The notes: generated from the sequence alone by a model not told the origin. Numbered from the stretch's first letter, positions 9,970-63,117 are shown. The stretch: 64,000 nt of DNA from Bdellovibrionales bacterium (GCA_965197425.1 CBDANC010000013.1:96001-160000); one strand, 5' to 3'. Translations and numbers: made by a program.

Positions 9970-10587
9970 ATGCTAACCTCTATTGTGAACTCAAAAGCAA
10001 AGGGCGTTAAGCTAATAATAGCGGTTAATGTTCTGATATTTTTTGCCTGGCTTGTAGGTTTTGATTCACTCTTTATGAGAGCACATTTTTTAATAAGTCC
10101 TATGCACCTCAAAGATGGCATGTGGCTAAATCTGTTGAGTGCCGCTTTTTCTCACAATCTATTGTGGCATTTGTTAATAAATATGCTTGTGCTACTTAGT
10201 TTTGGACCTGTTATTGAGTTTATTATGGGAACAAAAAAGTTTTTGTTCTTCTATATGATGACAGCTGTTGTAAGCTCCCTCACTCATTGTGCAGTGTCGT
10301 ATTATTTGTTAGGTGCACCAGATGCTATGGCACTGGGTGCATCTGGGGCAATATCTGGTTTGGTACTCTTATTTTCACTAACCTACCCCAGAGAAAAACT
10401 TTACATACTGGGCATCATACCTGTTCCTGCAATAGTAGGTGCAATAGCTTTTGTGGGCATTGATATGTGGGGGCTTATGTTCCAAATTCAGGGAAGTGGC
10501 CATCTAATAGGACACGGAGCTCATCTGGGTGGAGCTATATTTGGTGCTATGTATTTTGTGGTGCTAAAGTCGCTCAAAAAAGTCTAA
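9970..10587 (+). CDS. Rhomboid family intramembrane serine protease
   Basis: FSH..WHLLINM, GASG catalytic Ser, AHLGG catalytic His. Confidence 0.96.
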   Translation: MLTSIVNSKAKGVKLIIAVNVLIFFAWLVGFDSLFMRAHFLISPMHLKDGMWLNLLSAAFSHNLLWHLLINMLVLLSFGPVIEFIMGTKKFLFFYMMTAVVSSLTHCAVSYYLLGAPDAMALGASGAISGLVLLFSLTYPREKLYILGIIPVPAIVGAIAFVGIDMWGLMFQIQGSGHLIGHGAHLGGAIFGAMYFVVLKSLKKV

Positions 10588-10662
10588 CCCCATATTCTCT
10601 TAAAATCACTTTTGGTTCAAAACTTTCCGACTTTTCTATAAAACAAATAGAATCTCCATATT

Positions 10663-11616
10663 CTAGTGTGAGTTTTTAATTTTCTCTATCTCTTCTTTAG
10701 AAAGACCAGATACCTCGGAAATAAAATCAAGATCAGCGTTCTTTTTTAACATATTCAACACCATATCCCTTACACCTTGTTCTCTACCTTGTTCTTTACC
10801 TTCTTCTAACATGGAACTCATTTGAGATCTTCTTTTCATTTCTGCAAACTCTAGCCACTCGGCAACTTCACCTTCTGCAAACTTCTTCATTTTACCTACC
10901 ATTTCACCCATAACACCTCCTTTGACAATAAAATCATCAAATTCAACTTTTGACATTCTACCAGAATTCTTCAATAAATAACACAACTTTTCTCTACTAT
11001 CTAAAAGCTCATCAAATGACTTAGTAAACTTATTTAACTCAACTAACACTATGCTCTGCCCTTTGGCTTCACAAAACCTAATATGCGGTTGTTTAACCCT
11101 TAAAAACTCAAACCTATGATAATAATCACTTATACCTTTTAAGCCAGAAATAGAAGCACCTTTTGTAACAAATGCTATTAAAACTGTGTGTACTGCATCT
11201 CTAAAATCACCGCCTACTTTTATTTGATTAGAATATCTTCTACATAAATAAGCTAACATCCTAGGTGCAAAGAACCTCTCATTAGTAGTCTGCATCTCTA
11301 CTATTACATTTTGACTAGATTTGTTACCTTTAATTTTATAATCCACAGAGGCTATCAAATCCAAAATAGATTTTTTGGGAAACTCACTCTTTGACTCAAC
11401 TTGGGTAGGTAATTGATCGGAGTCTAATAATGACACGCTTTCTATAACTGCATTATCAGGAAGCGGTAGAAAATGTTGTAATAGTAATTTAAGCTCATTA
11501 ATATTTGACTTAAAAAATGCTCTAAACAAAGTATCTGATGTAAAGTCGGGTAAAGGATTTTTGTCTTTATTTTTCACTGTTACAAATAATAAACTATAAT
11601 AAAAATTAAATTGCAA
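10663..11616 (-). CDS. Rpn / PD-(D/E)XK nuclease family protein (probable start GTG 11577)
   Basis: SDTLFRAFF, ILDL...VIVEMQ, RMLAYL, IVLVELNKF, EEGKEQGREQG, ISEVSGLSKEEIEKIK tail. Confidence 0.9.
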   Translation of the reverse strand: MQFNFYYSLLFVTVKNKDKNPLPDFTSDTLFRAFFKSNINELKLLLQHFLPLPDNAVIESVSLLDSDQLPTQVESKSEFPKKSILDLIASVDYKIKGNKSSQNVIVEMQTTNERFFAPRMLAYLCRRYSNQIKVGGDFRDAVHTVLIAFVTKGASISGLKGISDYYHRFEFLRVKQPHIRFCEAKGQSIVLVELNKFTKSFDELLDSREKLCYLLKNSGRMSKVEFDDFIVKGGVMGEMVGKMKKFAEGEVAEWLEFAEMKRRSQMSSMLEEGKEQGREQGVRDMVLNMLKKNADLDFISEVSGLSKEEIEKIKNSH

Positions 11617-11725
11617 ATAACAAAAATAAACTTGTAAAACATTCTTAATAGAAAAGAGGATTAGCTTTGATATTTAAAAAAATTTAATTTAAAACGAAAC
11701 AAAGACAATACAAAATTCTATCTTA

Positions 11726-12871
11726 TTGTCATTGTTTAGAAAAAAATTTGCTAAAGTGCAAAAGGTACTAAGCATGAGTGCAAATAAACCTGTTATGTAT
11801 CTAGACAGCAATGTCTTTGGTTGCTTTAGCCAAAAACACAATTGTTCCGGACATAAATACTATTTATTTAAAAACAACATCAACTTAAATCCAAAACTTC
11901 CAAATACAGATGGTTTTTTAGTAAGTAATACAGCGTTTTCAGAATTTGAAAAGATGGGTTTGAAGAGGAAAGACTTCATAGATCTAAATAAATTAGACAC
12001 TATTACAGCTAAATGTGAATGCACTAAAAAAGATGTGGGTAAAAAAGATAATGGGTACGATGAGTATGATATTGAATTTATTAATTGTTTGTACGAAGCT
12101 ATTAAAACTGAAATAAATAATAGTGGCAAACTCAACCTAGATTTTTTTAATAAAAAATATTTGGAGCGTATAAAATCCTTAAATCATTTACCCAACAAGC
12201 TTCGTTCAGAATTAGAGCAATTCTACCATCATAAAGATTCTGAAACTCCTATCGATGATCATGTAGTAGAACAATGGGAGAATGTACTAATACTTGACAT
12301 TCTGGCTTCATTAAAACCTAAAGAGAGTAAAAAAAATTACTACGACCTATTATTGGATATGGCACACACCCTAAAAAAACGTGTTAATTTTCCTTTCCCC
12401 GTTACTAGAGTGGCGTATAACATGATGAAATTTGGAAACCTGGATAAAAGATTATACCAAGATAAAAGCTCAAGAGAGCTGGAGAAGGCTCTGAAACTAA
12501 TAACATATCGCCAAAATGAGGATATGGTCGATGCAGAGCTAGTACATGTTGCTGTGGTTGAAAATTGTTTGCCACCAACTGAGGGGAATATTCCATATCT
12601 TTTTACATGTGATCCTATCAAAACAGTTTTAACCAGAATTAGTTACTATAAATCATGTGTAAAAGGATGGAATGATAATTTCAGCAAACTTTATAACAAA
12701 ACTTTTATGGATGAATGTAAAGAAAGTTGGCTAATATTTTTAGATAAGGATAATTTTGGAATTACACACATTATAAATGTGCAAAGCATACCATGTTTGT
12801 TTGAATGGATTGGTGAAAGTAAAACCTTGGATGATATGTATGAATTTGTGGGGATTGATGTTTCAGATTAG
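11726..12871 (+). CDS. Hypothetical protein with PIN-like motifs (probable start ATG 11774)
   Basis: 381 aa ORF; MYLDSNVF, MVDAELVHVAV, LFTCD resemble PIN acidic motifs separated by a large insert. Confidence 0.6.
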   Translation: MSLFRKKFAKVQKVLSMSANKPVMYLDSNVFGCFSQKHNCSGHKYYLFKNNINLNPKLPNTDGFLVSNTAFSEFEKMGLKRKDFIDLNKLDTITAKCECTKKDVGKKDNGYDEYDIEFINCLYEAIKTEINNSGKLNLDFFNKKYLERIKSLNHLPNKLRSELEQFYHHKDSETPIDDHVVEQWENVLILDILASLKPKESKKNYYDLLLDMAHTLKKRVNFPFPVTRVAYNMMKFGNLDKRLYQDKSSRELEKALKLITYRQNEDMVDAELVHVAVVENCLPPTEGNIPYLFTCDPIKTVLTRISYYKSCVKGWNDNFSKLYNKTFMDECKESWLIFLDKDNFGITHIINVQSIPCLFEWIGESKTLDDMYEFVGIDVSD

Positions 12872-12962
12872 GGGAAGTGGCCATCTAATAGGGCACGGAG
12901 CTCATCTGGGTGGAGCTATGTTTGGTGCTGTGTATTTTACGATGCTTAGACTAACAAAATAA
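12847..12962 (+). pseudogene. Orphan diverged copy of rhomboid 3' end
   Basis: WGLMFQIRGSGHLIGHGAHLGGAMFGAVYF matches 10466-10587. Confidence 0.92.
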
Positions 12963-13008
12963 ATTAGGCAAAATTAAAGCAGGCACATTAAGATGAAGAT
13001 ATTGGATC

Positions 13009-13038
13009 AAAAAAGGCTCGGATTCCCAAGCCTTTTTT
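13009..13038. terminator. Intrinsic terminator downstream of pilin copy 1 (bidirectional)
   Basis: AAAAAAGGCTCGG-ATTC-CCAAGCCTTTTTT. Confidence 0.85.
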
Positions 13039-13067
13039 GTATTAACAACTTTTAATCAAGCTGTAGT

Positions 13068-13799
13068 TTATACCCCACTGAGGTGGTTCGTTAAAATTTT
13101 GTCTTGGGTAATTGTCCATACATCGTCGCGTGTCTCACCAGCGTTGGAGCCAATTACACCGATGTTTCCATACGCAATACCTACAAAATTAGACGTGTTG
13201 CACGGAGCACTAAGTGTAGAAGGAGTAGTAGCTGGTGTCATCAAAGCTGTCAAGCCTGCCGGAACAGCATCAGAATGAGAAATATTCGTAGCATTCGGTA
13301 TGTTGACCACGGGTATCGGAACGTTTGGTATGTCTGTCTTACCCGAAAGGTTAACACAAGTGGCGGTACCAGCCAAAGTAGATCCTGGAGCATCACAAAC
13401 GCCAGCACCTCCTTCTCCTGTATGTCTCCTAGCTAAAGACAATCCAGCCCCAGTGTATCTGATTGGACTACTACCAGGACCGCATATAGGGGCCGTACCA
13501 ACGATGGCAGAATCATTCGAGAATCCAGCAATGTAACCAAGCTGTCCTTCTGGATAAAACCCAATGCCCTGAAGGTCGGTAGTTCCCGCACCCCATTCGG
13601 CTATAAACGATTTTTCAGCGGTGAATATTCCACTTAGCAAGCCCCTGGCTTCTGCCTGTCTAGCTCTTCTTTGGAAGGCCTGATAGTTTGGTATTGCTAT
13701 TGCCGCCAATATCCCTATGATCGCAACCGCAACCATAAGCTCAATTAACGAGAAACCCTTTTGTTTGCTGTTGTCAGCTTTTGTTGAAACCCTAAGCAT
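13068..13799 (-). CDS. Type IV pilin (PilA-like), copy 1
   Basis: Prepilin site KG|FSLIELMVAVAIIGILAAIAIP, C-terminal cysteines, AGGAGG RBS. Confidence 0.95.
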   Translation of the reverse strand: MLRVSTKADNSKQKGFSLIELMVAVAIIGILAAIAIPNYQAFQRRARQAEARGLLSGIFTAEKSFIAEWGAGTTDLQGIGFYPEGQLGYIAGFSNDSAIVGTAPICGPGSSPIRYTGAGLSLARRHTGEGGAGVCDAPGSTLAGTATCVNLSGKTDIPNVPIPVVNIPNATNISHSDAVPAGLTALMTPATTPSTLSAPCNTSNFVGIAYGNIGVIGSNAGETRDDVWTITQDKILTNHLSGV

Positions 13800-13876
13800 G
13801 CGTGAAACCTCCTAATGATCGTTAATCACGTGTCCCATTCTTGACATCAATTCAAGTTTATCTACAAGATGTTAGG

Positions 13877-13903
13877 TCATCGGAAGAAACTTTGTCAAAT
13901 TAA
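13877..13903 (-). promoter_or_regulatory. Sigma-28 (FliA)-like promoter of pilin copy 1
   Basis: TTAA-N15-TCCGATGA on minus strand, close to TAAA-N15-GCCGATAA. Confidence 0.55.
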
Positions 13904-14133
13904 ATGGATTTAATACCTCAAACATTACAGCCTTTTGTCTTAATTTGTATTGAAACTGATCACAAAGCCTAAATAACACAACTATCACAGGGGGGCTTGC
14001 TCCCTTTATCATGCGATTGTGTAATAACATTGGCCCTGGAAACCAACAGTGGTGGCATGTAAAATGACTTTGGACATAATGTGAGTGCTAATACATCCAA
14101 ACTTATAACATAATGCAAAAGGAATGATTGACC

Positions 14134-14403
14134 TCAGCCCTGTAACGCTTTGAAAACTCTGGAAGAAATGCGACTTATTTTTCTGGATGCGGTTTCTTTT
14201 TTTATCACACCTTTGGATGTTGCCTTGGAAATCTTGCTGCTATAGGCCCTTAAAAGCTCCTTCAAAGAGTCTTTGGAATCAGAGCCCAACGCCTTTAAGA
14301 TCTTCTTTTCCAAAGTTCTGACCAAACTTTGGATACTTTTATTACGAACTCTTCTTTTTATATTCTGCCTGGCTCTTTTTTTTGCAGATTCTATGTTAGG
14401 CAT
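14134..14403 (-). CDS. rpsT: 30S ribosomal protein S20
   Basis: MPNIESAKKRARQ..RNKS, KGVIKKETASRKISR; start moved to ATG 14403. Confidence 0.97.
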   Translation of the reverse strand: MPNIESAKKRARQNIKRRVRNKSIQSLVRTLEKKILKALGSDSKDSLKELLRAYSSKISKATSKGVIKKETASRKISRISSRVFKALQG

Positions 14404-14546
14404 AATAAGCTCCCAATAATTCCTATAAAAAATAATCCCTGCAACTCCAAACATCACATAAATTCAAACCAAACAACATGAACATCTGAAGACTTTCAGG
14501 TATATTCTAATACAACATCCAATGTTGTGACGCAAGGACTTAAATA

Positions 14547-16094
14547 GTGGAAAGAAAGAACATAGCCAGTTTTGCCATCGTAGTGGGCCTGGGAACTTTT
14601 TGTAGTCGCATATTTGGCCTAATTAGAGATGTACTCCTGGCCTCATTTTTCTCCAGATTTACCACAGATGCATGGCTTGTGGCCTTTCGCATACCTAATA
14701 TGTTTAGAAGACTTTTTGGAGAGGGTTCTCTTTCAGCTAGTTTCATCCCTGTATTTGTAGGTCTTACTGAAAGTGGAAACATCAAAGATGCAAAAAAACT
14801 AGCTTCAGTAGTATTCAGCTTACTACTTACTATCCTTACAGCATTTGCAATTTTAGGGGTAATATTTGCCCCAGAAATCATAGGCTTCCTTACCCATGGC
14901 AAAAACTACTCTGAAATCCCAGGTAAGGTTGAACTTACCATAGAACTTACCAGAATCATGCTTAGCTTTGTAGTGCTGGTATGTATGTATGCATTTTTTA
15001 TGGCCATACAAAATAGTTTTCGAAAATTCCTAATTCCAGCCTTTGCTCCAACCCTATTAAACCTGTCAATCATAGCTTCTGTATTTCTACCAACAAATTG
15101 GTTTGATGTAGAGGGAAAGAACTTGGCATGGGGAGTACTAGTAGGAGGACTACTACAACTTATCATAGTAATTCCTGGTGTGTATAAACTTGGTTTTTTG
15201 CCAAAACTAAATTTTGACCTTGGTTTTAAACACTGCAGATCAGTTGTTAGAAAATTTGTTCCAAGTGTTATTGGAGTAGGAATATTACAACTAACTGTGC
15301 TTATAAATACTCGCTTTGCAAGTCACCTGCCCGAGGGGGCTAATTCATGGCTCTTCTGGGCTGATAGACTTTTAGAATTTCCCTTATCTCTCTTCGCAGT
15401 AAGCATGGGTACAGCACTTCTACCAGTACTATCCATCCACTATGCACAAAAAAATATGGACAAGTTTTCCAAAACTTTGCAAGAAGGATTAAGGCAAGTG
15501 TTGTTTTTAGCCATACCTTCTGGTGTTGGATTGTTGATGCTTTCTGATCTACTGATCACCACAATTTTTATGAGAGGTGCTTTTGTAGAAAGTGATGTCC
15601 ACTATACAAGCTCAATACTACAAGTTTATGGTGTATCCATAATTTTTTATGCAAGTATTAGAGTATTACAACCTGTATTTTATGCCATACACAATACATG
15701 GCTCCCTGCAATTGTATCAGCAATATGCCTTGGTATTCATATAATGATGGCAGGGCATTTTATTAAATTAGCCGGGGTTCAAGGACTAGTAATATCAGCA
15801 GCAATTTCCGCTTTCATAAATGTTACAACTTTGGTTATAGCCTATAGAATTTTAATAGGAAAATTTCATTTAACTTTGTTCTTTTTAAAAAGTGTTACAT
15901 CCGCCACTTTTATGGGAATACTTTTGTTTTTTATTAAAAATAATTTTACTACAGATAATTTTTTAGAAAGACTATTGCTTCTTACTTTTTGTATTACTAT
16001 GGGAGCTGTTATTTACTTCATAATATCATGGTTAATTAAAATCGAAGAAGTCAATTACTACAAAAACAAATTGAAAGAAAAATTATTCCACTAA
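14547..16094 (+). CDS. murJ: Lipid II flippase MurJ (MviN)
   Basis: SRIFGLIRD, AFRIPNMFRRLFGEG, ADRLLEFP; divergent from rpsT as is typical. Confidence 0.97.
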   Translation: MERKNIASFAIVVGLGTFCSRIFGLIRDVLLASFFSRFTTDAWLVAFRIPNMFRRLFGEGSLSASFIPVFVGLTESGNIKDAKKLASVVFSLLLTILTAFAILGVIFAPEIIGFLTHGKNYSEIPGKVELTIELTRIMLSFVVLVCMYAFFMAIQNSFRKFLIPAFAPTLLNLSIIASVFLPTNWFDVEGKNLAWGVLVGGLLQLIIVIPGVYKLGFLPKLNFDLGFKHCRSVVRKFVPSVIGVGILQLTVLINTRFASHLPEGANSWLFWADRLLEFPLSLFAVSMGTALLPVLSIHYAQKNMDKFSKTLQEGLRQVLFLAIPSGVGLLMLSDLLITTIFMRGAFVESDVHYTSSILQVYGVSIIFYASIRVLQPVFYAIHNTWLPAIVSAICLGIHIMMAGHFIKLAGVQGLVISAAISAFINVTTLVIAYRILIGKFHLTLFFLKSVTSATFMGILLFFIKNNFTTDNFLERLLLLTFCITMGAVIYFIISWLIKIEEVNYYKNKLKEKLFH

Positions 16095-16269
16095 TGATAC
16101 TTTCAAACACTCAGATTGAGATCACAAACCACGCTTTGTGAATAACTTTGGTCTGGCAAACCAAAAGTCCTGTTTCAGGCCTTAAGTTATAATTTTGTTT
16201 CATAGATAAAAGTATGGCCCCTCTGGCTAAATGTGACACCTGGTTAACGATTGTTAAAAGGAGTCACAA

Positions 16270-17118
16270 ATGTTAAGGTTTAATACAAAAGTCGGTGCTG
16301 TCAAGAAGGATGCTTACAGCACGAGTGTTTTACAAACACATGTAGCAAAAAGAAATGTAGGGCGCAATAAGCTACAAAAAAAATGCCTCCAACCGCAGGT
16401 TGGTTTCTCGTTAATTGAGTTGATGGTTGCGGTTGCAATCATTGGTATATTGGCAGCGATTGCGATACCAAACTATCAAGCCTTCCAAAGAAGAGCTAGA
16501 CAGGCAGAGGCGAGGACAATGTTAAGTGGTATATTCACCGCTGAAAAATCGTTTATAGCCGAATGGGGTGCTGGAACTACCGACCTTCAGGGCATTGGGT
16601 TTTATCCAGAAGGACAACTTGGTTACATTGCTGGGTTTGATGAAGATTCAGTTCAAGTGGGTACGGCTCCCATATGCAATGATGGTACTCCTGGTGGGGC
16701 GGGGCCAGGTAATTCTGGTACTCCAATTAGATACACTGGGGCTGGGTTGAATTTTGCTAGGAGACATACAGGTAATCTTGCTACTGGTGTGTGTGATGGT
16801 CCAGGATCTACTTTGGCTGGTACCGCTACTTGTATTAATCTTTCGGGTAAGACAAACATACCATCTGGTGTTGAAGGAATAATTAATGGGACTAGTGCTA
16901 CACAGATTGTACATTCTGATGCTGCTCCGACAAGCTTGACAAATGTAGGGACAGCTGCTGATAGTAATGGCATTAGTGCTGCATGCAATAACGGCAATTT
17001 TATAGCCATTGCATATGGAAACATAGGCGCAATTAGTTCTGCTACTGGTGAAACGCGGGATGATGTGTGGACAATTACCCATGATAAAATTTTAACAAAC
17101 CATCTTAGTGGTGTATAA
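16270..17118 (+). CDS. Type IV pilin (PilA-like), copy 2, long leader
   Basis: VG|FSLIELMVAVAIIGILAAIAIP; close paralogue of 13068-13799; AAGGAG RBS. Confidence 0.93.
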   Translation: MLRFNTKVGAVKKDAYSTSVLQTHVAKRNVGRNKLQKKCLQPQVGFSLIELMVAVAIIGILAAIAIPNYQAFQRRARQAEARTMLSGIFTAEKSFIAEWGAGTTDLQGIGFYPEGQLGYIAGFDEDSVQVGTAPICNDGTPGGAGPGNSGTPIRYTGAGLNFARRHTGNLATGVCDGPGSTLAGTATCINLSGKTNIPSGVEGIINGTSATQIVHSDAAPTSLTNVGTAADSNGISAACNNGNFIAIAYGNIGAISSATGETRDDVWTITHDKILTNHLSGV

Positions 17119-17152
17119 ATCATATCTTAATTAAGGGTTGTTAATACAAAAG

Positions 17153-17183
17153 AAAAAGGCTTGGTATCCCCAAGCCTTTTTTT
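17153..17183 (+). terminator. Intrinsic terminator downstream of pilin copy 2
   Basis: AAAAAGGCTTGG-TATCC-CCAAGCCTTTTTTT. Confidence 0.9.
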
Positions 17184-17291
17184 ATTCCCACAATCACTTT
17201 CTATTCAAGCTACATCCCTTACTCTAACAGAAATATTTTTTCCAAGAGATGATAATGAGTCAAAAATACTATTGCAAAGATTGATGCCATT

Positions 17292-18080
17292 TTGGACATG
17301 ATTACAAAGGTTGTTAAGATAAAATCGCTGTGTTACAAGGACACAATGATTGAAGTAAAAAACATAACAAAAGAATATTCACAAGAAAACATAAAAGCAG
17401 TAAATAATGTTTCTTTTAAAATAGACAAAGGTGAAGTTGGCTCCATCATTGGTACAAGTGGGTGTGGAAAAACCACAACGCTTAAAATGATAAACAGATT
17501 AATTGAACCTACATCAGGCAGTGTTATTGTCAATGGACAAGACTCTAGCACAGGCAGCGCTGTTGCATGGAGAAGAAGGATTGGCTACGTAATACAAAAA
17601 GCCGGGTTACTCCCTCACTTAACTGTTGGCCAAAATATTTCACTATTGTCTAAAATTCTAAAAAGAAAAAAAAGTTTTATTACAAAAAGAGTACAAGAGC
17701 TAATGGATGACACAATAAACATGTCTTATAGTAAGTACTCCTCCAGGTATCCTGCACAGCTTTCTGGCGGGCAACAACAAAGGGTAGGCATAGCCCGTGC
17801 ATTGATGGAAGACCCTTCTGTTATGTTGATGGATGAGCCATTCGGAGCACTTGATCCAATTACAAAAAATACTCTTCATGAAGAGTTTATTCATCTAAAC
17901 AAAAAACTGAATAAAACTATATTGATGGTTACTCACGATGTGGAAGAGGCATTTAAGCTAGGAGACAAAGTCATTCTAATGAATAAAGGAAATATTATTC
18001 AAGTAGGTACAAAAGAGGATTTTATTAAAAATCCAAGAAATGAATTTGTAACTGATTTTGTCAGTAAGAAGATTGCATGA
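17292..18080 (+). CDS. Osmoprotectant (OpuCA/ProV-like) ABC transporter ATP-binding protein (probable start 17346)
   Basis: GTSGCGKTTTLKMINRLIEP, LSGGQQQRVG, LMDEPFGALDPIT. Confidence 0.95.
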   Translation: MDMITKVVKIKSLCYKDTMIEVKNITKEYSQENIKAVNNVSFKIDKGEVGSIIGTSGCGKTTTLKMINRLIEPTSGSVIVNGQDSSTGSAVAWRRRIGYVIQKAGLLPHLTVGQNISLLSKILKRKKSFITKRVQELMDDTINMSYSKYSSRYPAQLSGGQQQRVGIARALMEDPSVMLMDEPFGALDPITKNTLHEEFIHLNKKLNKTILMVTHDVEEAFKLGDKVILMNKGNIIQVGTKEDFIKNPRNEFVTDFVSKKIA

Positions 18081-19627
18081 AAAAAATATTGCTTTTAATT
18101 TTTCTGATTTTTATAGGAAATATATCTCAAGCTGAAGATAAGATCACTATAGGCTCCAAAAAATTTAGTGAATCCATAATTTTATCTGAAATGCTCTCAA
18201 TACTATTGGAAGAAAAATACAACATACCTGTTGAAAGAAAAATGGGTTTTGGAGGTACATCGATCACTTTGGATGCCTTAAAAGCTGGTGATATAGATGT
18301 TTATCCTGATTATACAGGAACAGGCTATATCATGATCCTGAAGTTGAGTGGAGAAAAGGATAAAGACAAAGTTTATGACATTGTGAAGGCTGAATTTTTT
18401 GAACGTTGGAACATAGTGTGGTCTAAACCAATAGGGTTTAATAATACCTACGCTTTAGCTGTTAAAAAAGATGATCCTGTATTTGAGGGTATAGAAAATA
18501 TATCTGATCTGGAAGGAAAGTTGGATGATGTAAGATATGCCGCTGGCCATGAGTTTATGGAAAGAGCGGATGGACATGAGAGTTTTGTGAATACTTACAA
18601 TTTAGATTTTAACTCTGGTAATGTTTTCTCAATGGAGGTTGGCCTGATATATTCTGCAATTAGAGATGATCAGGTAGATATGATTGTTGCTTATTCTACT
18701 GATGGAAGGATTGATGCTTATGATTTGCGTTTATTAAATGATGATCTAGGCTTTTTCCCTTATTACTATGCTGCATTTTTATCTAGAAGTGACACTTTAG
18801 AAAAATATCCAGAGCTTGGAGAAGCTATAAAACTTTTGGAAGGCACGATAAACGAGCCTGAGATGGTGAAGATGAATGATGCTGTAGATCGCCTCAAAGA
18901 ATCTCCTTATCATGTTGCTAAAAACTTTTTAATAGAAAGAGATTTAATTGAAGGAGAAGTTTTAGTTTCACAGGGTGGTGTTGGATTTTTTGGATACTTA
19001 ATGCAAAGAAGAGATTATTTATTAAAGCTTTTATATGAGCACTTATTGATATCTCTTGGAGCATTAGGATTTGCTCTTATTGTATCTATTCCAACTGGAA
19101 TACTTCTTACTCGTTATCCGTTACTTGGGAATGTTGTATTTCCGGTCATAAATACTCTACAAACCATACCTAGCCTGGCTTTGTTAGGTTTTTTGGTTCC
19201 TATTATGGGCATAGGAGTTGCACCAGCGATAGTAGCGTTGTTTTTGTATTCACTTTTACCTTTGGTTAGAAACACATATGCTGGAATGCTTAGTGTAGAC
19301 AAAAGTTTCATCGAAGTTTCAAAAGGTATTGGTTTGACCGGAATGCAGGTTCTACTAAAGGTAGAAATTCCAATGGCTTTACCAGTGATAATTGCTGGAT
19401 TAAGAACTGCTGCTGTAATTGTGATTGGTACAGCAACCTTAGCTGCTTTAATTGGGGCTGGAGGTTTTGGTGATCCTATCTTTAGAGGAATTTCAACTGT
19501 TGACTCACGCCTTATCTTACTTGGTGCAATCCCAGCTGCTTTGTTAGCTGTTGTATTTGATAAGATTATAGGTTTCCTAGAAAAGTCGGTAGTATCAAAA
19601 GGCCTAGTGCTTCAAAGCAAAAGATAA
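18077..19627 (+). CDS. Fused glycine betaine-type substrate-binding protein plus ABC permease
   Basis: IGSKKFSE, DVYPDYTGT, GFNNTYALAV, YSTDGRI, then QTIPSLALLG permease. Confidence 0.93.
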   Translation: MKKILLLIFLIFIGNISQAEDKITIGSKKFSESIILSEMLSILLEEKYNIPVERKMGFGGTSITLDALKAGDIDVYPDYTGTGYIMILKLSGEKDKDKVYDIVKAEFFERWNIVWSKPIGFNNTYALAVKKDDPVFEGIENISDLEGKLDDVRYAAGHEFMERADGHESFVNTYNLDFNSGNVFSMEVGLIYSAIRDDQVDMIVAYSTDGRIDAYDLRLLNDDLGFFPYYYAAFLSRSDTLEKYPELGEAIKLLEGTINEPEMVKMNDAVDRLKESPYHVAKNFLIERDLIEGEVLVSQGGVGFFGYLMQRRDYLLKLLYEHLLISLGALGFALIVSIPTGILLTRYPLLGNVVFPVINTLQTIPSLALLGFLVPIMGIGVAPAIVALFLYSLLPLVRNTYAGMLSVDKSFIEVSKGIGLTGMQVLLKVEIPMALPVIIAGLRTAAVIVIGTATLAALIGAGGFGDPIFRGISTVDSRLILLGAIPAALLAVVFDKIIGFLEKSVVSKGLVLQSKR

Positions 19628-19865
19628 TAAAACACCTTACACTTAACTCTTATTCCAGATTTTATTCATGAACTGCAGAAAAACAAAAGCTTTGAAACTA
19701 CTAAAAAGATGAATAATTTATTCATCAAAATAATAGTTGAAATACAAACCCTAGAGCCAGAACTAGAAAATTCTTTTTATTGTTAGAAAATGTTACAATG
19801 GCCTAAACTCTTGCTACCAAACTCACGAAGTTTGCAGTACATCCTTTTAAATAAAAGGTTCTTTT

Positions 19866-20675
19866 TTGGGATTTAAATTGTTCAAATTTAAAGGTGAGCT
19901 TAATGAAGCAAAAAACAAGGAGGCTTCGCCTTCTTTTTTTTGCCGATTGGCTGTTTCCTGGTATTTATTTTTAATAATATTTTTTGTTGTTTTAGAATCA
20001 AAAAGCTTAGACAAAGAAGGGTGTATTAACTCTTTATCACAATTTGAACAGCTTGAAAAATCTGAGTCTTCATTAGAAGCAAACGAAAGTTTAAAGCTTT
20101 TCATAGAGCGAGGTAATGTTCGAGAAATAATGAAAGTTATTGAGAACAACATGATAAATATAAATACACAAGATGCCAAAGAAAACACCGCTCTTATGAA
20201 AGTGGTCCAATTTGGCAATTTAGATGATATTCTTATTATTTTTGATCAACCTTTCTTGAATGTAAATTCACAAAATTCCCTAGGTAAAACTGCTTTAATG
20301 CTGGCAATTGAATGGGAAAGGATTGACATGGTTAAACTTCTTTTGATGCATCCATTTACAAGACTAGATTTGGTAGATACAAATGATAAAACTGCCTTAA
20401 TACTAGCAATTGAACTATATAAGCAGTCACCACAATTTTATTATCAAGTTGTTAAACTACTTTTAAACCCAAAACTTGCAGCTGAGTTTTGGGGAACTGC
20501 CGATAAAAGAATTAGGGAAGTTTTTGATCGAAAATCTATTAAATTAACAAAAGATGTAAACAGAAATAATGCATTAAATTTTCAAGATAACCTAAATGAA
20601 ACTGCAACAATGAAGGCTATTACAATTGCCCAAGACACCAAACTTGTAGAGCTATTGTTAAGCTATGAACATTAG
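19866..20675 (+). CDS. Exported ankyrin repeat protein, probably 3'-truncated; start uncertain
   Basis: NTALMK, GKTALMLA, KTALILA repeats; next repeat (LDLQAK) continues out of frame. Confidence 0.85.
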   Translation: MGFKLFKFKGELNEAKNKEASPSFFCRLAVSWYLFLIIFFVVLESKSLDKEGCINSLSQFEQLEKSESSLEANESLKLFIERGNVREIMKVIENNMININTQDAKENTALMKVVQFGNLDDILIIFDQPFLNVNSQNSLGKTALMLAIEWERIDMVKLLLMHPFTRLDLVDTNDKTALILAIELYKQSPQFYYQVVKLLLNPKLAAEFWGTADKRIREVFDRKSIKLTKDVNRNNALNFQDNLNETATMKAITIAQDTKLVELLLSYEH

Positions 20676-55810: not shown

Positions 55811-55928
55811 AAACTTTCAATAGTGTAACACACCCCAAAGCAACTGAAACTTTTTAGAAACATCACGAACTTAAGTTTAAAATCTATACACACAAACTCC
55901 TGTGCCATCGAAATTTTTATGATAGAGG

Positions 55929-56009: not shown

Positions 56010-57149
56010 TTGAGTAAAAACAAAAGGAAGCCAGAAATGGGAATTATTAAATTACTAGTTTGTTTATTAGGTTTAACTCATGCTGCGCTGTTTACACAAC
56101 ATGCCTATGCACAAAAAACAATGGTATTGCACGACAAATCGGAGCCAATATTACAAAAGAGAGAAAAGCAACGAGGTCCCAGGAACCCATCATTACGATG
56201 GTTACGTGTTATGGATGGATTTGATTGTAGATCTTTAGTAGTTCTTAGTAACGCTACTGAGATAGAGCCTTATGCTTACTGCGAAGATAAACCTTACCTT
56301 GTTTACAAATACACTACTATTTTGAACTACAGGGGCGTTCCAGTGCAAATAGGTGGAGCTGTACGATTAGCAGACGACATAATAAAAAGTGTTATATTGT
56401 ACGAACTTGCAAATAATTTACAACATTACAACAAAAAAAAGAAGTGTGATGATTCACATGGTGAAGCTTTTAAATGCGGTTTTAATGCTGTTGCATCTTT
56501 TCCATTTAAACTTTTAGGAGCTGTATTATCTCTTGGCGCTTATGATCCTTTTCCATATGTTGAAGAAGAAAGTGGTTTCATCAATTCTTATTTTTCCGAA
56601 CGAATTTTGGAAGTAATGAAAGCTCTTGCTCCTCATTTTAACGAAGATCATAAGGATTTTGTATGGGCAGATATAGGTACTAAATGTTTTAAAGATGGAG
56701 TTTGTGATGGGGAATTTGGAACCAATGCTCGTGGTAGTTGCGTCCATGCAGATGCTAAAAAGTATTTTTTGGAAGCAACTGAACAATTAAGGCAAGATGA
56801 AAAATTTTTAAAAGAGGCTATTGAGAGTCCTTTTTTTGATGTGGTTGGACTGAATAAGGCAGGACTTAGCACGCTTTCTAAACTTGATAGACAATTAGAA
56901 GATGAAAATGCAAAACTAACACCACAACAAAAATTTGAAAATTGTATGCGTAAAGCACAACCTTATATCGACAAAGGCGGAGATGTTGAATGGGTTAAGC
57001 AACAATGTAAAATGACCCCAGGAAAAATATTAGCTGGTGTAGGTGCTATTACAATTCCAGCAGCAGTAGCTACCGTCAACCCTGCAGCTGGAATAATTGT
57101 TGGTGTAGGTGTAGGCTTGTTTTATATAACTTTTAAATGGACATTTTAA
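56010..57149 (+). CDS. Hypothetical exported Cys-rich protein with C-terminal hydrophobic hairpin
   Basis: Signal peptide AYA, several Cys pairs, Gly/Ala-rich double hydrophobic segment at C-terminus. Confidence 0.85.
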   Translation: MSKNKRKPEMGIIKLLVCLLGLTHAALFTQHAYAQKTMVLHDKSEPILQKREKQRGPRNPSLRWLRVMDGFDCRSLVVLSNATEIEPYAYCEDKPYLVYKYTTILNYRGVPVQIGGAVRLADDIIKSVILYELANNLQHYNKKKKCDDSHGEAFKCGFNAVASFPFKLLGAVLSLGAYDPFPYVEEESGFINSYFSERILEVMKALAPHFNEDHKDFVWADIGTKCFKDGVCDGEFGTNARGSCVHADAKKYFLEATEQLRQDEKFLKEAIESPFFDVVGLNKAGLSTLSKLDRQLEDENAKLTPQQKFENCMRKAQPYIDKGGDVEWVKQQCKMTPGKILAGVGAITIPAAVATVNPAAGIIVGVGVGLFYITFKWTF

Positions 57150-57231
57150 TGAACAATTGCTTAAATCGATATACCTTAGGCTAAAAGTAAAATAGCTACA
57201 TAAAGTTGTTAGAGTTTTTTAGGAGGTAAGT

Positions 57232-57387
57232 TTGAATAAAGACAAAAAGAAACGGATAAGAAAAATTCTCAAATTACTAACTTATTTATTGTGTTTAACT
57301 TACGCTATACTGTTTTTGCGATACATCTATGCACAAGAAGTAGTGGTATTGCACCATGAACCAGAACCAATGGTGTTACAGAAATAG
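57232..57387 (+). pseudogene. Orphan 5' fragment (signal peptide region) of a 56010 paralogue
   Basis: AGGAGG RBS, TTG start, KLLTYLLCLTYAILF..YAQEVVVLHHEPEP.LQK* versus KLLVCLLGLTHAALF..YAQKTMVLHDKSEPILQK. Confidence 0.85.
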
Positions 57388-57414: not shown

Positions 57415-58725
57415 TTAGGTTTCGACGATATCAAAATATAGCAAGTTATATATCCTTCTTTGGTACCCTCGTATGCCTCTCTCAGATTCGCTAGTTATCA
57501 TTTGAAATGGATACAAACCATCATCATTCTTGATTTTATGATTAGCACCCTCTTTGAGAAGTAGTTTAACTGCTGAAAATACACCCTTGGAAGTGCCGGT
57601 GGCAGCAGCAAAGTGAAGTGGGGTATTTCCTCCCTTACCTCTAGCATTCAATGTAGCTCTTCCTTTAATTAATTCCTTTACCACCAATTCTGCTTTTACA
57701 ATGTTAGGATTAACCGCCAAGTGCAGAGGAGTATTTCCATCTTTGTCTACACTATTAACTACAATTCTGGCATCAACAAGGTATTTTATAATATTAGTTG
57801 AAACAATAACTCCCCACTCACTTAAAGATCTTAATTCATTGATCAGTATATGTAATAAACTATTTCCATCTTTGTCTTTAAAATTTACATCTGCTCCTGC
57901 ATCTATCAGTGTTCTTACTAGTCTTGATACATCACGATAGTTACTTGGATTAAGCTCAGATATAGCCATGCTAAGAGGAGTGTGACCATCTACAGCTACA
58001 GTATCTATAAAAACTCCTGTTTCAATAAGTTTCTCTACAAATGATAAAGAATACCTCTTACTTAAGTTTTTGACTGCTAAATGTAAGGGCGTATAACCCT
58101 CATTATTTTGTGTATTTAGTGCATCTAAACTAGCTATATTTTTAAATAACTTATTAAAGACCACCAAACTATGTCGATTACCAACATTGAGTGCCAATAA
58201 GTGTAACGGTGTATTGCCATCTTTGTTTTGAGCTTTGATGTCTGCTCCAGCATTTAAAATTCCTTCTACCAACATAAAAATAGGATAACGATCAGGTCTT
58301 AGTACAAAATGAAGAGGTGTATTGTCATTTACATCTTTAGCACTTACATCAGCACCATTTTCAATCAGAATTAAAGTAGAAGTTATTCTCCGACACCATG
58401 AAGCCCAGTGCAAAGGAGTGAGTCCCGAATCATCTGGAGCATCTACATCAGCACCATCTTTGATTGCTTTCCGTAACGAACCAAAGCCCATCTTAATAGC
58501 CAACCTATGTAAGTCTGTACCAACAGAAGTCTGATAACTCCTTTGCTCACAATTAAATCCAGATTCAAACAAGTATCTTGATTCTTCAGATGCAACCTTT
58601 CTTAAATTAAAATTTGCATGCCCATTAGTTTTATGGGGTGAGGAGCAAGACATGCAAAAAACAAGCACCATTAGAAAAAAACAAAAAAAATTTCCGTATT
58701 TAATCTTGTACATAGTTCTTAGCAT
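57415..58725 (-). CDS. Ankyrin repeat lipoprotein
   Basis: Lipobox CMSC; many G(N/L/Y)TPLH repeats. Confidence 0.95.
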   Translation of the reverse strand: MLRTMYKIKYGNFFCFFLMVLVFCMSCSSPHKTNGHANFNLRKVASEESRYLFESGFNCEQRSYQTSVGTDLHRLAIKMGFGSLRKAIKDGADVDAPDDSGLTPLHWASWCRRITSTLILIENGADVSAKDVNDNTPLHFVLRPDRYPIFMLVEGILNAGADIKAQNKDGNTPLHLLALNVGNRHSLVVFNKLFKNIASLDALNTQNNEGYTPLHLAVKNLSKRYSLSFVEKLIETGVFIDTVAVDGHTPLSMAISELNPSNYRDVSRLVRTLIDAGADVNFKDKDGNSLLHILINELRSLSEWGVIVSTNIIKYLVDARIVVNSVDKDGNTPLHLAVNPNIVKAELVVKELIKGRATLNARGKGGNTPLHFAAATGTSKGVFSAVKLLLKEGANHKIKNDDGLYPFQMITSESERGIRGYQRRIYNLLYFDIVET

Positions 58726-59465: not shown

Positions 59466-59645
59466 TTTTGGAATTAAGGCAGTTAATTTTCCCAATAATT
59501 ATCAGACGCCACCACCACAGTATCTGGATTTAGACTTTCTATAACTTTCTTAAAAAAATCTAAATAACTACTTATAACAATGGTTTACTCCACAACTTAG
59601 AAAATAGTGACCTTAACTGGAACAAATCAGGTGGGAACTTAGGAA

Positions 59646-60863
59646 TTACTTTAAAAAAAGTTTTTGAAGAGCTTTTTGCCAGTGAAGGCAGGAGATACCT
59701 TGGATACTTTGGGCTTGAGTATCAAGCGACCAAACCTGTGCACTGTGGGGTAAATCCCAATCTGAAGAAAAATGTTTTACGGTTTTAATATGATCTTTTC
59801 TGATTTCGTTAGTAGATTTTATTTCTACAATCAATTCCCTTTTACCAGGTCTTTGTATAATCAGATCCATTTCTAAGCCATTTTTAGTTTTTAGATATGA
59901 AAACTTATAGCGTTTTCTAAAGTAGTGGTTTAACTTAAAACATTCCAGAATAACAAAATGTTCAAAAGCTCTCCCAAAGGAGAAGGTTTTGGGTTTAATG
60001 GGAAGTGTAAGAGTTTCGTCTAATGCTCTAGTAATTCCGGTATCAAATAGATAAAACTTAGGTGCCTTTTGCTGTTGCTTTCTAACAGATCTAGAGTAGG
60101 TGGGTAGGAAAAATCCTATAAGAGTGTCCTCCAAAATCGAAAAATAATTTTGAATAGTTTTATGATCAGATTTTACCTCTCTCGCAAATTTGGAATAATT
60201 GATTGTCTGACCATTTAACTGAGCAGTGATTTCTAAAAAATTTTTAAAAGGTTGTATCTTTCGGACAATCTGCTCTTGAAGAACTTCCTCTTTTAAATAG
60301 TTTTGCACATAACTTTCTAAAAACAATATCTTTTCTTTTTTTGATTTTAATTCTAAAAGTTTTGGAAGTGTTCCAAACTGTAAAGCATTTTTGATGCTAA
60401 ATTTAGATACAAGTTCAAAACAAGAAAATGGGTAAAGGTAGTAAGAAATAGCTCTTCCCGCCAAAAGATTTGCCTGGCCTCTTTTAAGTTTTCTGGCACT
60501 AGAACCTGTCATAATAAATTGTGTTTTTTTATTTTGTTCTATCTCCCTGTGAATAATATCCAGCAGTTTAGGAACTTTCTGAACCTCATCAATGACAACA
60601 AATTTGTACTGGTTTTTAGAAAGGATATTAGATAGCCTGTCGGGATTTTTTAAAAAAGCATTCTCTTGCTTGTAATCCAGAAAATCTATGTATAGCATTT
60701 TCTGAGAAGAGAACAGATGCTTAACCAGAGTTGACTTCCCAGTCCCTCTAGCTCCAAACAAAAACAGGTTTTGTTTAGTTTTTAGATTTTGAAATCTTGA
60801 GATCATACCCCTAAATTTATCGTCTAAATTGGTATTAAAGTCAAGTTTTTTCTCAGTTGACAA
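59646..60863 (-). CDS. AAA family ATPase with DUF4143 (probable start ATG 60806)
   Basis: GARGTGKST, VIDEVQK, TGSSARKL, LLAGRA, PKFYLFDTG, VEIKS. Confidence 0.95.
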   Translation of the reverse strand: MSTEKKLDFNTNLDDKFRGMISRFQNLKTKQNLFLFGARGTGKSTLVKHLFSSQKMLYIDFLDYKQENAFLKNPDRLSNILSKNQYKFVVIDEVQKVPKLLDIIHREIEQNKKTQFIMTGSSARKLKRGQANLLAGRAISYYLYPFSCFELVSKFSIKNALQFGTLPKLLELKSKKEKILFLESYVQNYLKEEVLQEQIVRKIQPFKNFLEITAQLNGQTINYSKFAREVKSDHKTIQNYFSILEDTLIGFFLPTYSRSVRKQQQKAPKFYLFDTGITRALDETLTLPIKPKTFSFGRAFEHFVILECFKLNHYFRKRYKFSYLKTKNGLEMDLIIQRPGKRELIVEIKSTNEIRKDHIKTVKHFSSDWDLPHSAQVWSLDTQAQSIQGISCLHWQKALQKLFLK

Positions 60864-60875
60864 AAATAAGGACAG

Positions 60876-61931
60876 CTAATTTTCCCAGTAATTATCAGAC
60901 ACCGCTAAGCCTTCAGTTAAGTTAACCTTTAATGCTTTAACTGAGTTAATTTCCATACCTGCCATCATTCCTTCAACCAAAATTAAATTGCTAACTGCTG
61001 TATTTACAAATTTACCTCCTCCAAGCTCATCATCAGTTTTGTCAAGTCTTCTCAAAATGCCAGATTTGATTTGCTCCTGGTTGTATTCTTCTAACTCAAG
61101 CTCTTTTGATACAGCGTAATAATGTACTCCTCCTATACCAAGAATTATGGAGTTTTTTAACAAATCTTCCATGTGAGTACGAACATTTTGAGCTTCATCC
61201 TTAGCAATTTCGAAGGCTTCATTATAAATAGATAACGATATAGGATTTGGGGATGATGTCCTGTTTTGTAGTTCAAGAATTTGTTCCATAAATCCAATAG
61301 AAGCCAGCTTACCTTGGTAAACCTTTGTACCGCTCCTGCCATTAGAACAAGTAATCTGAACACTGGAAGCTCCAATATCCCAGACGCACACTTTTTGTTT
61401 CTTCGAAATGCCTTCTTTAGTAATTGCTCCGCGAAAACCAAGTCTAGCTTCTTCATTTTGAGTTACTACTTTTATAGGGATTTTTACTAAGTTAGACAAT
61501 TCATGAGCAGCACTTATTCCATTGTTAGCTAATCTAAAAACAGAGGTAGCCACACCTGCAAACCCAGTTGCTTTACAATTTATTGCTGTATCTTTAAGAT
61601 TTTTTAAAGCAGTTTCACCTTGTTTCAAAATTTCCTGAGGTATAAGGTTTGAATTGGTAAGATTTTTTCTATATTGTACAGGCTCTTCCGCTTCACATTC
61701 TTTATCTTCTATTTGCTCTACGCTATTGGCACATTCATTATAGTGATACACTTTCATTTTTGTACTTCCACTACCCACATCAAATGCTGCACGAATGATA
61801 TTTTTTTTACAAAAACTAAAGTTGGATACTTTAAGTGTTAAGAACACCAAGAAAGGTATAGCAACTAGTATCGCAAAACCAATTTTTTTGTTGTAGGGTA
61901 AGCGTCTGAACATGCTCTCCCAATATAGCAT
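60876..61931 (-). CDS. Ppx/GppA-family phosphatase with N-terminal membrane anchor
   Basis: RAAFDVGSGSTK, ATSVFR, QNEEARLGF, VWDIGASSVQ. Confidence 0.88.
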   Translation of the reverse strand: MLYWESMFRRLPYNKKIGFAILVAIPFLVFLTLKVSNFSFCKKNIIRAAFDVGSGSTKMKVYHYNECANSVEQIEDKECEAEEPVQYRKNLTNSNLIPQEILKQGETALKNLKDTAINCKATGFAGVATSVFRLANNGISAAHELSNLVKIPIKVVTQNEEARLGFRGAITKEGISKKQKVCVWDIGASSVQITCSNGRSGTKVYQGKLASIGFMEQILELQNRTSSPNPISLSIYNEAFEIAKDEAQNVRTHMEDLLKNSIILGIGGVHYYAVSKELELEEYNQEQIKSGILRRLDKTDDELGGGKFVNTAVSNLILVEGMMAGMEINSVKALKVNLTEGLAVSDNYWEN

Positions 61932-62136
61932 GTTACTTTTGGTAAGTTAAAAACATATTTTTTAATTATCCAAAAATTAACAAGATAAAAGCGGATCAAA
62001 CAAACAGGAAGATTCTCAAGTAGCCAAAAGAACCATTCAAAAGGACGAAGGATTGGATGGACAAAAAGATCCTTATAACAGAGCAAAAATTTTGGTTATT
62101 CTGTTTTGAGAAACAATAAGTTGGGGCAGAAATCTG

Positions 62137-62556
62137 CTACCCTCCTTTAGCTAAGACATAGTAAAAGCCTAAAGCACATAAAAGGCCAAAGGTTGAACCA
62201 CTGAGTGCGCAGAGGATGATACCAGAAGCTCTGCTTTTGCTTCTCTTGCCAAGCCAAAAGAAAAAAAATGGCATAAAAAAGGGAGTAATTACTAAGACGC
62301 AGAGAATTGCAATAGCTATAGCAACCGCAGGGAACAAAAAAGATGCCATAAGCACGCCAGCCCAATAGAAAAGAAATAATCCAACCACATCCATTGATTC
62401 ACTATTAGTGCCTGGGGGCTCATGGAAGAGCAGATAAATAAAAAACAGAGTACCTGCTAAAAAGTAAGAAATAGTAAGTGCAATCAAGAGTTCTTTTTTA
62501 GTAGATCTAAAAATAGACTTCCATCTGATATCAACAATGTCCAGAAACTCTAGCAT
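62137..62556 (-). CDS. Hypothetical membrane protein
   Basis: Several hydrophobic helices; AGGAG RBS. Confidence 0.7.
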   Translation of the reverse strand: MLEFLDIVDIRWKSIFRSTKKELLIALTISYFLAGTLFFIYLLFHEPPGTNSESMDVVGLFLFYWAGVLMASFLFPAVAIAIAILCVLVITPFFMPFFFFWLGKRSKSRASGIILCALSGSTFGLLCALGFYYVLAKGG

Positions 62557-62785
62557 TATCTCCTACCCTATTTATTTTTATGTACTGCTCTTTGTTTTTT
62601 ACCTTAAATAGTATAGCACATCACTTAACAACTGAATCATCTTTTCTGTAGTGGAAACTAAAAAAAACTTTTCTCATGCGAGTGTAATTATACTAAAGTC
62701 AAAGAATTTACAAATGTAAAATCAAAGTCTCAAATACATATTTAATTTGACTAAAAACTAATATGAAGCTTAAAGGAATGGTGTA

Positions 62786-63073
62786 TTATGATGCATCGAT
62801 AAGTATACGGTGAAATCTATCTAATTCTGTTTTAACTCTTTTCTCAACATGATCATTTTCATAATTAACAAATTTTATAGTTGATAGATCTATGTTGTGC
62901 TTGTGAAAAGTTATAAGCAGTTCCGAAATAAAGGATTGTGCCATTGATTCAACGCCATCAAGATTAACATTAATATTATCACTAGGGTTGGGTTGAATTT
63001 CTTCTACAGCTTCAAAGGCTCTGCTTCTGCCAGACAGGAATCTTCCGATTTTTCCTAGTTCTATTGTTTTCAT
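62786..63073 (-). CDS. STAS-like (DUF4325-type) protein
   Basis: FLSGRSRA, VNLDGVESMAQSFISEL. Confidence 0.75.
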   Translation of the reverse strand: MKTIELGKIGRFLSGRSRAFEAVEEIQPNPSDNINVNLDGVESMAQSFISELLITFHKHNIDLSTIKFVNYENDHVEKRVKTELDRFHRILIDAS

Positions 63074-63117
63074 TTAACAGGAACCTCTATCTCGAATAAT
63101 ACACCACACACCGTATC
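63070..63117 (-). pseudogene. 3' remnant of a probable HATPase-like gene formerly coupled to the STAS-like gene
   Basis: CGVLFEIEVPVK* ends in ATGA overlap with the 63073 start. Confidence 0.45.

Follow-up and report, generated by a model that had tools for sequence, protein, structure and literature searches.

The stretch of DNA analysed here, 64,000 nucleotides from a Bdellovibrionales bacterium (GCA_965197425.1 CBDANC010000013.1:96001-160000, equal to G000:C13:96001-160000; hereafter the window), carries accessory genes bracketed by an intact gene and an orphan copy of that gene's 3′ end. We call the intact gene the host gene, the enclosed genes the cargo and the orphan end a scar. The first-pass annotation had counted at least eight such cases, and self-alignment of the window, which provided all fragment pairs below, recovered the eight fragments. 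Four of them are clean cases, one is a real fragment that had been misread, and three do not fit. The clean arrangement, host gene, cargo and then a same-strand copy of the host gene's 3′ end, is present at a rhomboid protease gene, at the gene starting at 32705, at the ankyrin gene starting at 33791 and at a Ppx/GppA gene. All four orphan ends stay open to a stop at most 2 codons from the position of the intact stop. The features, with domain calls from Pfam, are the following:

9970-10587, + strand, rhomboid protease gene (PF01694), host gene; its 65% orthologue in the congener G001 is directly followed by murJ
10663-12871, both strands, rhomboid cargo: a PDDEXK_2 (Rpn-like) gene (−) and an orphan gene of 365-381 aa (+)
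12844-12961, + strand, orphan rhomboid 3′ end, in frame, with its stop 2 codons early; 86% over 103 bp
32705-33310, + strand, host gene, called lipocalin-like in the first-pass annotation; matches to 0 Pfam families
33791-34795, + strand, ankyrin gene, at once cargo of the 32705 scar and host gene of the scar at 35945
35083-35240, + strand, orphan 3′ end of the 32705 gene, in frame to the same stop position; pN/pS 0.89
35306-35944, + strand, cargo gene whose stop codon abuts the ankyrin scar
35945-36119, + strand, orphan ankyrin 3′ end with 33 bp past the stop, adjoining an IS1595 fragment (36116-36478)
59472-59510, − strand, orphan Ppx 3′ end: 8 codons, the stop and 11-12 bp; 87.5% over 40 bp
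59646-60863, − strand, Ppx cargo, an AAA_14/DUF4143 ATPase gene
60876-61931, − strand, Ppx/GppA family gene, host gene

The paired segments are 10463-10565 and 12844-12946 for rhomboid (86%, 103 bp), 33181-33338 and 35083-35240 for the tail of the 32705 gene (78%, 158 bp), 34654-34828 and 35945-36119 for ankyrin (94%, 176 bp) and 60864-60903 and 59472-59510 for Ppx (87.5%, 40 bp). The 32705 and ankyrin units are interleaved and must therefore reflect successive events.

The pattern is real and wider than the window. The source assembly (G000; 1.60 Mb in 15 contigs, 99% complete) was compared with G001 (one contig of 1.6 Mb, 93% complete, read almost whole), to which it has a mean identity of 68% across 1024 reciprocal best hits. 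Parts of one genome of the same family (G002, 800 kb of 2.57 Mb) and of one of the same order (G040, 400 kb of 3.73 Mb) served as controls. Genes outside the window were taken from a hexamer-scored open reading frame caller, with approximate starts; the census set held genes of at least 450 bp with at most one paralogue, and copies of their 3′ ends were sought by class. In G000, 14 of 932 such genes have a same-strand copy of their 3′ end within 10 kb downstream (5 of 931 in G001). The same class at 10-40 kb has 0 members in G000, and every other geometry has 0-3. Three of the 14 matches lie less than 200 bp from their gene, with no cargo between. Counting scars more than 500 bp away gives 11/932 in G000, 4/931 in G001, 2/381 in G002 and 0/272 in G040, including two doubtful matches (G000 C14:30613 and G001 889702). 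These counts do not differ significantly (Fisher p 0.12, 0.37 and 0.24), and a genus-specific excess of scars is thus not shown.

The host genes include those for PBP1a, PNPase, dihydroorotase, an exonuclease, TpiA, PdxJ, MaeB and RpoD. Empty sites in the relative were seen at the level of gene order at six loci: the PBP1a-uvrA, dihydroorotase-peptidase M3 and exonuclease loci are filled in G000 and have adjacent flanks in G001, and the tpiA-secG, maeB and pdxJ loci show the reverse. It had been proposed that this route drives rapid turnover of effector and defence genes. We found a detectable scar at just 5 of 36 and 2 of 28 clean gain/loss sites, short scars being expected to escape, and a G000 scar rate not significantly above that of G001 or G002. 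The scars are therefore a minority route here (7/64 clean sites), with modest weight in genome turnover. At syntenic sites alone the bias to 3′ ends is weak (7/78 3′-facing against 2/50 5′-facing ends), and one of the two 5′-facing scar sites overlaps a 3′ scar.

The copies behave as alleles from related lineages and not as decaying duplicates, as the first-pass annotation had suggested. From 22 listed cases, 15 pairs with 600 codons were used (12 from G000, 3 from G001); left out were two 5′-type cases, one mid-gene case, two with 26-33 coding bp, one Rpn tandem repeat and one with indels and a tRNA. All 15 repeats align over 39-420 bp and are 77-98% identical. There are 0 stops in the 600 codons, and the orphan stops lie −4 to +2 codons from the intact ones. 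The dN/dS is 0.25 (0.20 in the 11 pairs with an orthologue above 50%), and the differences fall 59/40/99 by codon position. Neutral decay would give 5-7 stops and a dN/dS of 0.6-0.8. For a duplicate beside a selected intact copy, 4.5-5 stops are expected, with a probability of at most 0.02 of seeing none, and the lowest simulated dN/dS (0.236) reaches the observed value. The orthologue agrees 29 times with the intact copy and 24 times with the orphan, so that neither is the decayed one. The absence of stops and the low dN/dS together suggest that both ends diverged as working alleles. The differences had also been described as mostly synonymous, which is true of the pool; three window pairs taken singly do not show it (pN/pS 0.44 for rhomboid, 0.89 for the 32705 gene and 0.86 for ankyrin).

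The divergence is unevenly spread within the repeats. When the 15 pairs are pooled and each repeat is halved, silent differences number 28 of 249 on the side of the cargo junction and 60 of 258 on the far side (p=0.0004). In 361 orthologue pairs silent divergence is flat over the last 100 codons (0.44-0.49). In 150 simulations of uniform divergence with the same aligner the ratio was at minimum 0.58 and never fell to the observed 0.48. In 3 of the 15 pairs, identical cores of 95, 80 and 44 bp exceed those of shuffled pairs (p<=0.0025); the pnp pair, with the 95-bp core, is laid out as diverged, identical, diverged. Silent differences halved beside the junction point to a crossover inside the repeat. 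In homology-facilitated illegitimate recombination (HFIR), reportedly treated in papers of Prudhomme (2002) and de Vries (2002), the orphan would be wholly resident and even divergence is expected, whereas a single crossover should leave a shared tract.

On the illegitimate side, junctions fall 28-380 bp before the stop, and no common 5-mer was found at 19 junctions (top count 5-6, null mean 6.5). HFIR would call for 3-10 bp of microhomology at the illegitimate joint; candidate traces are an overlap of 2 nt at 57383 and, at G000:C13:165747, the last 9 nt of a cargo gene, 7 of which agree with the target, this gene having the same ending as its paralogue. The claim that cargo genes stop at or inside the scar holds at 4 of 19 junctions (co-oriented stop at −27 to +8 bp); at 8 of 19 the nearest cargo gene is antisense, with its 5′ end facing the junction. 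In the rhomboid cargo, gene 11726-12871 (365 residues) has one homologue, with which it can be aligned as far as residue 355; its final 9 codons are supplied by the scar.

Inserts are 0.5-7 kb long, under the 20-kb limit of a published class of insertions discussed below, and cargo has the base composition of the core (GC 0.351 in 15 cargo genes, 0.352 in core). Cargo domains include ankyrin, RhuM, HicB, Panacea, AAA_14 and Rpn-like. No restriction-modification (RM) domain was found in the scanned cargo of the window or of G000; two G001 scars carry RM pairs, a type III pair behind maeB and a methylase with a BglII-like endonuclease behind rpoD/tRNA-Met. Most cargo has no integrase or transposase domain, although an Rpn-like gene is present at rhomboid and the IS1595 fragment abuts the ankyrin scar. 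G001 has two pairs of tRNA-Met genes, whose members lie 1.8 and 3.3 kb apart (G001:C1:642638-644474 and 1517211-1520588), and the first of them brackets the methylase and BglII-like endonuclease behind rpoD.

The misread fragment is the supposed leader of the 56010 gene at 57232. It exists, but 57228-57371 is a truncated paralogue of 56010 and not a scar. The true repeat here is a 34-bp non-coding pair with 94% identity:

55819-55852, + strand, left copy of the 34-bp repeat, just past the hipA stop
56010-57382, + strand, cargo: gene 56010-57149 and a paralogue (57228-57382) cut after about 50 codons
57383-57416, + strand, right copy, at the 3′ end of the ankyrin gene 57415-58725

The paralogue ends exactly at the right copy; its frame closes with a stop formed at the junction, and the overlap with the repeat is 2 nt.

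Reads were compared with the window over 2001-22000. Runs X2 and X3 are one sample, which may be the source of G000; run X1 contains a relative at about 94-97% identity to the window. One X2 contig runs from 2001 to 13572 without a single difference from the window, and the rhomboid unit is therefore not a chimera. X1 depth across the rhomboid cargo (10672-12672) is 0-0.29, which at this low coverage (0.71 at rhomboid itself) is at most consistent with a missing cargo. A search of metagenomes with the rhomboid protein as query yielded no same-species empty allele, its single locus being weak and uninformative. The only empty site seen at base level concerns a candidate scar behind murJ, in an X1 contig:

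14547-16094, + strand, murJ (Pfam), host gene; its last six codons (16077-16094) are likely replaced
16270-17118, + strand, type IV pilin gene, likely cargo behind murJ; a 76% inverted copy of the pilin gene 13068-13799
17308-17322, + strand, candidate displaced murJ end, reading RLLR-stop, 24 bp before the likely start of an ABC ATPase gene

The X1 contig joins murJ position 16076 to 17308 with three other letters between and skips the pilin gene. RLLR-stop then closes murJ in X1 at the window murJ's own end codon, with a chance probability of 4.5%. The 15 bp, absent from the first-pass annotation, look like the displaced resident end of murJ and like a product of HFIR type. They are not a repeat, they are below the 30-bp minimum of the published class, and 3 nt are replaced. 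The joint comes from one contig of depth 4.3 with a short side of 24 nt, and the MurJ end of G001 resembles the window's intact end more than the displaced one; a deletion in X1 may thus explain the joint.

The absence of an integrase, claimed in the first-pass annotation, held up: neither G000 nor G001 has a match to a tyrosine recombinase (XerC/D included) or a large serine recombinase, no search being aimed at attC; tyrosine recombinases are present in 3 of 3 other genomes of the family. Nor did reverse transcriptase (RVT_1), rve, Y1 transposase or Ku match in either genome. A reverse-transcriptase route to the 3′ bias was dismissed on the RVT_1 result (0 of 2 genomes), and duplication driven by insertion sequences on the lack of rve and Y1, G000 having just one DDE_Tnp_1 gene (C11) and one IS1595 fragment. 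A small serine-type resolvase of 230-240 aa adjoins the dCTP deaminase gene in both genomes (G000:C12:4669-5388; L075:15237-15929). It was rejected as a driver, since its neighbour is the same in both and no common site was found at the scars; it might take the place of Xer in resolving chromosome dimers. RecA, MutS, ComEC, DprA and type IV pilins, among them the competence genes that the first-pass annotation had wanted looked for, are present by sequence. Each of 5 family genomes, and 10-11 of 14 controls, has ComEC and DprA, which therefore discriminate little. A literature search found nothing on natural competence in this order. The Rpn/YhgA family is expanded in some relatives, with 16-19 matches each in G001, G002 and G004, against 1 in G000 and 0 in G040; counted as Rpn-type nucleases, the numbers are 2 in G000 and 16 in G001.

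We give about even chances to a route without integrase, in which a circularised fragment from a relative, a gene tail with the genes downstream of it, is integrated by a RecA single crossover. The fragment would derive from a related lineage, and an illegitimate join, placed differently from case to case and sometimes within a cargo gene, would close it into a circle. The circle would then enter by RecA crossover inside the tail, giving the host gene the donor's distal end, leaving the resident distal end behind the cargo and making the copies identical over the exchange tract. Donors would be 2-23% diverged in the tail, and their DNA may arrive by competence or by transduction. An intact gene with its own promoter would be restored only by circles that carry a tail; this would account for the 3′ bias and for the scarcity of copies from the middle of genes. 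The earlier idea of one homologous and one illegitimate join is thus likely sound in its logic. Its canonical HFIR form fits less well, since canonical HFIR yields deletions and these loci are duplications with an identity block at the junction, for which a single-crossover circle is the better fit. Flanking core genes are retained, and no deletion of recipient DNA of similar size is seen at the scars. More speculatively, and with little likelihood in our view, RecA acting between the tail copies might free a non-replicating circle of tail and cargo that enters the orthologous tail of a relative. If such a cassette cycle were true, any housekeeping gene end would be an attachment site, and each round would give the host gene a foreign C-terminus, in lineages free of tyrosine recombinases.

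Several observations weigh against the single-crossover circle. Neither a circle nor a donor sequence was seen, nor an empty allele from the same species at any clear scar, and no circle-type joint is among the rows listed from the read comparison. Ku has no match in G000 or G001. The orthologue control for the gradient (0.44-0.49) is near saturation, in 12 of 15 pairs no identical core reaches significance, and the three window pN/pS ratios (0.44, 0.89 and 0.86) are as given above. RecA needs a minimum homology of about 25 bp, for which the runs of 12 bp at Ppx and 13 bp at a DegT-family gene are short. Identity blocks could also stem from gene conversion between the two copies at a later time. 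A single crossover cannot have produced the murJ candidate, which shows no homology to the intact end. DNA taken up through ComEC is linear and single-stranded. Competent species may also disfavour circularisation, to follow the relevant part of PMC3240628.

The rival with most in its favour, possible though doubtful as the general route, is an HFIR-like capture of linear DNA, in which the strand is anchored in the gene, exchange stalls in the diverged tail and an illegitimate join is made in the resident tail, larger deletions being lethal. It permits very short scars and would probably have made the candidate at murJ, with its lack of homology and 3 replaced nt. The paralogue truncated at 57382 and the presence of ComEC, DprA, RecA and pilins agree with it (though ComEC and DprA hardly discriminate), and HFIR has been invoked for orphaned 3′ regions (PMC5361080). 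It predicts uniform scar divergence, yet silent differences are halved near the junction, and its canonical product, in the portion of PMC3240628 used here, is a deletion of about 1 kb and not a duplication. Taken together, the single-crossover and HFIR-like routes probably account for the scars. Relics of site-specific integration, with the repeats as attL/attR and the integrase acting in trans or lost, are largely disfavoured and improbable. In their favour, the geometry is that of integrases targeting the 3′ ends of coding genes, a complete tRNA-Met lies within one G001 repeat, tyrosine recombinases occur in the three other family genomes and G000 is in 15 contigs. Against this, tyrosine and large serine recombinases are missing from assemblies 99% and 93% complete, every target gene is different, repeat lengths vary tenfold, no shared 5-mer was found at 19 junctions and scanned cargo has no integrase domain.

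Initiating breaks by restriction enzymes (the Kobayashi model) or by Rpn/YhgA nucleases are quite improbable as the driver, even though two G001 scars bracket complete RM pairs, G001, G002 and G004 have 16-19 Rpn genes and the rhomboid scar has Rpn-like cargo; most cargo is not a nuclease, G000 holds most scars yet 2 Rpn-type matches, and the allele-level divergence of the copies is left unexplained. A rival in which gene ends were duplicated in tandem and then decayed, cargo being inserted independently, could draw on the 3 of 14 G000 matches that lie less than 200 bp from their gene without cargo, and on the simulated minimum of 0.236. With 0 stops in 600 codons where 4.5-7 are expected and a polarity of 29:24, it is refuted for the pooled pairs, unless orphan ends are translated and under selection (the pnp orphan is an S1 domain with an ATG), and we regard it as very unlikely. 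A strain-chimeric assembly is hardly credible: G000 is probably a metagenome assembly and the X2/X3 sample may be its source, but an independently assembled contig crosses 2001-13572 without a difference and the pattern recurs at other genes in G001 and G002.

Similar arrangements are known. Integrase islands can target the 3′ ends of coding genes, rebuilding the host gene and leaving the old end behind the island. At the scars, likewise, the host gene would have a new end and the old end would be displaced behind the insert; in contrast to such islands, no integrase, fixed target or core motif was found. Insertion with long target duplication was reportedly the subject of earlier work by Nobusato et al. 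in 2000. The following comparisons draw on parts of three papers. For RM genes, such insertions were described mostly in competent species, with an RM double-strand break proposed as driver (Furuta, Abe, Kobayashi 2010, PMC2853133). Our cases resemble that class in inserts below 20 kb, variable repeats above 30 bp, the absence of an integrase, an empty site in the relative and, twice in G001, RM pairs as cargo. They differ in that the window cargo is not RM, the arrangement working likewise without RM membership, and in that the repeats are in-frame coding tails of 77-98% identity with an identity step, where rows of Table 2 in that paper give 43-47 of 46-47 bp. In E. coli, 56 of 60 clones obtained from a substrate with one-sided homology had a duplicated gene end, which measured 109-950 bp in the 14 that were sequenced; the fragment was degraded in part, ligated and integrated by a single crossover (Amarir-Bouhram et al. 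2011, PMC3240628). The scars share with it the variable length of the duplicated gene end (junction 28-380 bp before the stop) and the crossover tract inside the repeat (pooled p=0.0004; 3 of 15 pairs singly). That was laboratory conjugation with identical homology, and this is a natural case with diverged alleles, in which no circle was seen. HFIR displacement has been proposed for orphan 3′ ends at type VI secretion system (T6SS)/Rhs loci (Kirchberger et al. 2017, PMC5361080). There too one homologous and one illegitimate join are combined, and the orphan ends come from other strains and not from duplication; the T6SS/Rhs arrays are confined to toxin loci and the scars stand at unrelated housekeeping genes. 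HFIR normally deletes recipient DNA, in contrast to the duplications here.

With these precedents, the first-pass view of an undescribed process is not supported: the scars are a variant of a known route, for which other bacteria offer examples. A literature search found nothing on such scars in Bdellovibrionales; supplements were outside the search, and absence is not proven. How insertions with long target duplication arise has been an open question since 2000, and the part of PMC2853133 used here offers a restriction-enzyme hypothesis only. The present loci add cargo outside the RM class, copies that differ as alleles do and show a crossover step that can be measured, and a genus without a detected tyrosine recombinase. 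Diverged repeats record the event: no stops and a low dN/dS indicate that two working alleles met, and the silent step marks the crossover site. This provides a sequence test separating single crossover from HFIR with no detected integrase as a confounder. By implication, core proteins (PBP1a, PNPase, TpiA, PdxJ, MurJ) would receive their C-termini from other lineages whenever genes are gained in this way, as a side effect, and the class would escape island finders that look for integrases.

The three fragments that do not fit are real debris outside this pattern:

20756-20816, − strand, inverted internal fragment of an ABC ATPase gene (residues 170-189 of 260; 75% over 61 bp)
33612-33762, + strand, ankyrin paralogue remnant upstream of the 33791 gene, not in scar geometry
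41204-41310, − strand, gapped copy of the Ppx upstream region and first codons

The first had been taken for a gene-end scar and is inverted and internal. The second lies upstream of its supposed gene, with 42.5% identity to the 33791 ankyrin over 40 aa and 43% to another ankyrin over 30 aa. The third, supposedly a scar of the Ppx 5′ end, is 20 kb off, gapped and brackets no cargo.

Some neighbouring features deserve mention. The orphan pnp end at L167:3879-4130, 119 bp behind pnp, comprises a complete S1 domain and an ATG of its own; it shares the 95-bp identical core with pnp. It may be translated as a stand-alone S1 protein. A mirror-type case at L169:1599-5409 has an 82-bp, 98.8% copy of the etfB 5′ end lying upstream, and its cargo is a truncated paralogue of the preceding gene. 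Two full-length membrane-protein paralogues (57% aa identity) lie 7 kb apart at window 62137-62556 and G000:C13:165739-166152, one of them being scar cargo. The two type IV pilin genes at 13006-17185 form a 76% inverted repeat around an rpsT-murJ block that is inverted relative to G001, and X1 appears to be without the second pilin; a murJ remnant before pilin 13068, which would date the inversion, was sought there and not seen. A patatin phospholipase gene and a SMODS nucleotidyltransferase gene (23022-24925) form a pair like a cyclic-oligonucleotide-based antiphage signaling system, and the cyclase has no match in G001. The single rRNA operon is split at 31257-38347 by about 7 kb of accessory genes between 16S/tRNA and 23S (BrnT, ParE, ankyrin, the IS1595 fragment), and that of G001 is likewise split by about 15 kb (G001:C1:1293340-1308524); this spacer is a cargo hotspot in both genomes. 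Finally, an ankyrin leader at 19888-19961 recurs inverted at 28200-28270, between the 23S and 5S genes, and is matched by many contigs of runs X1-X3.

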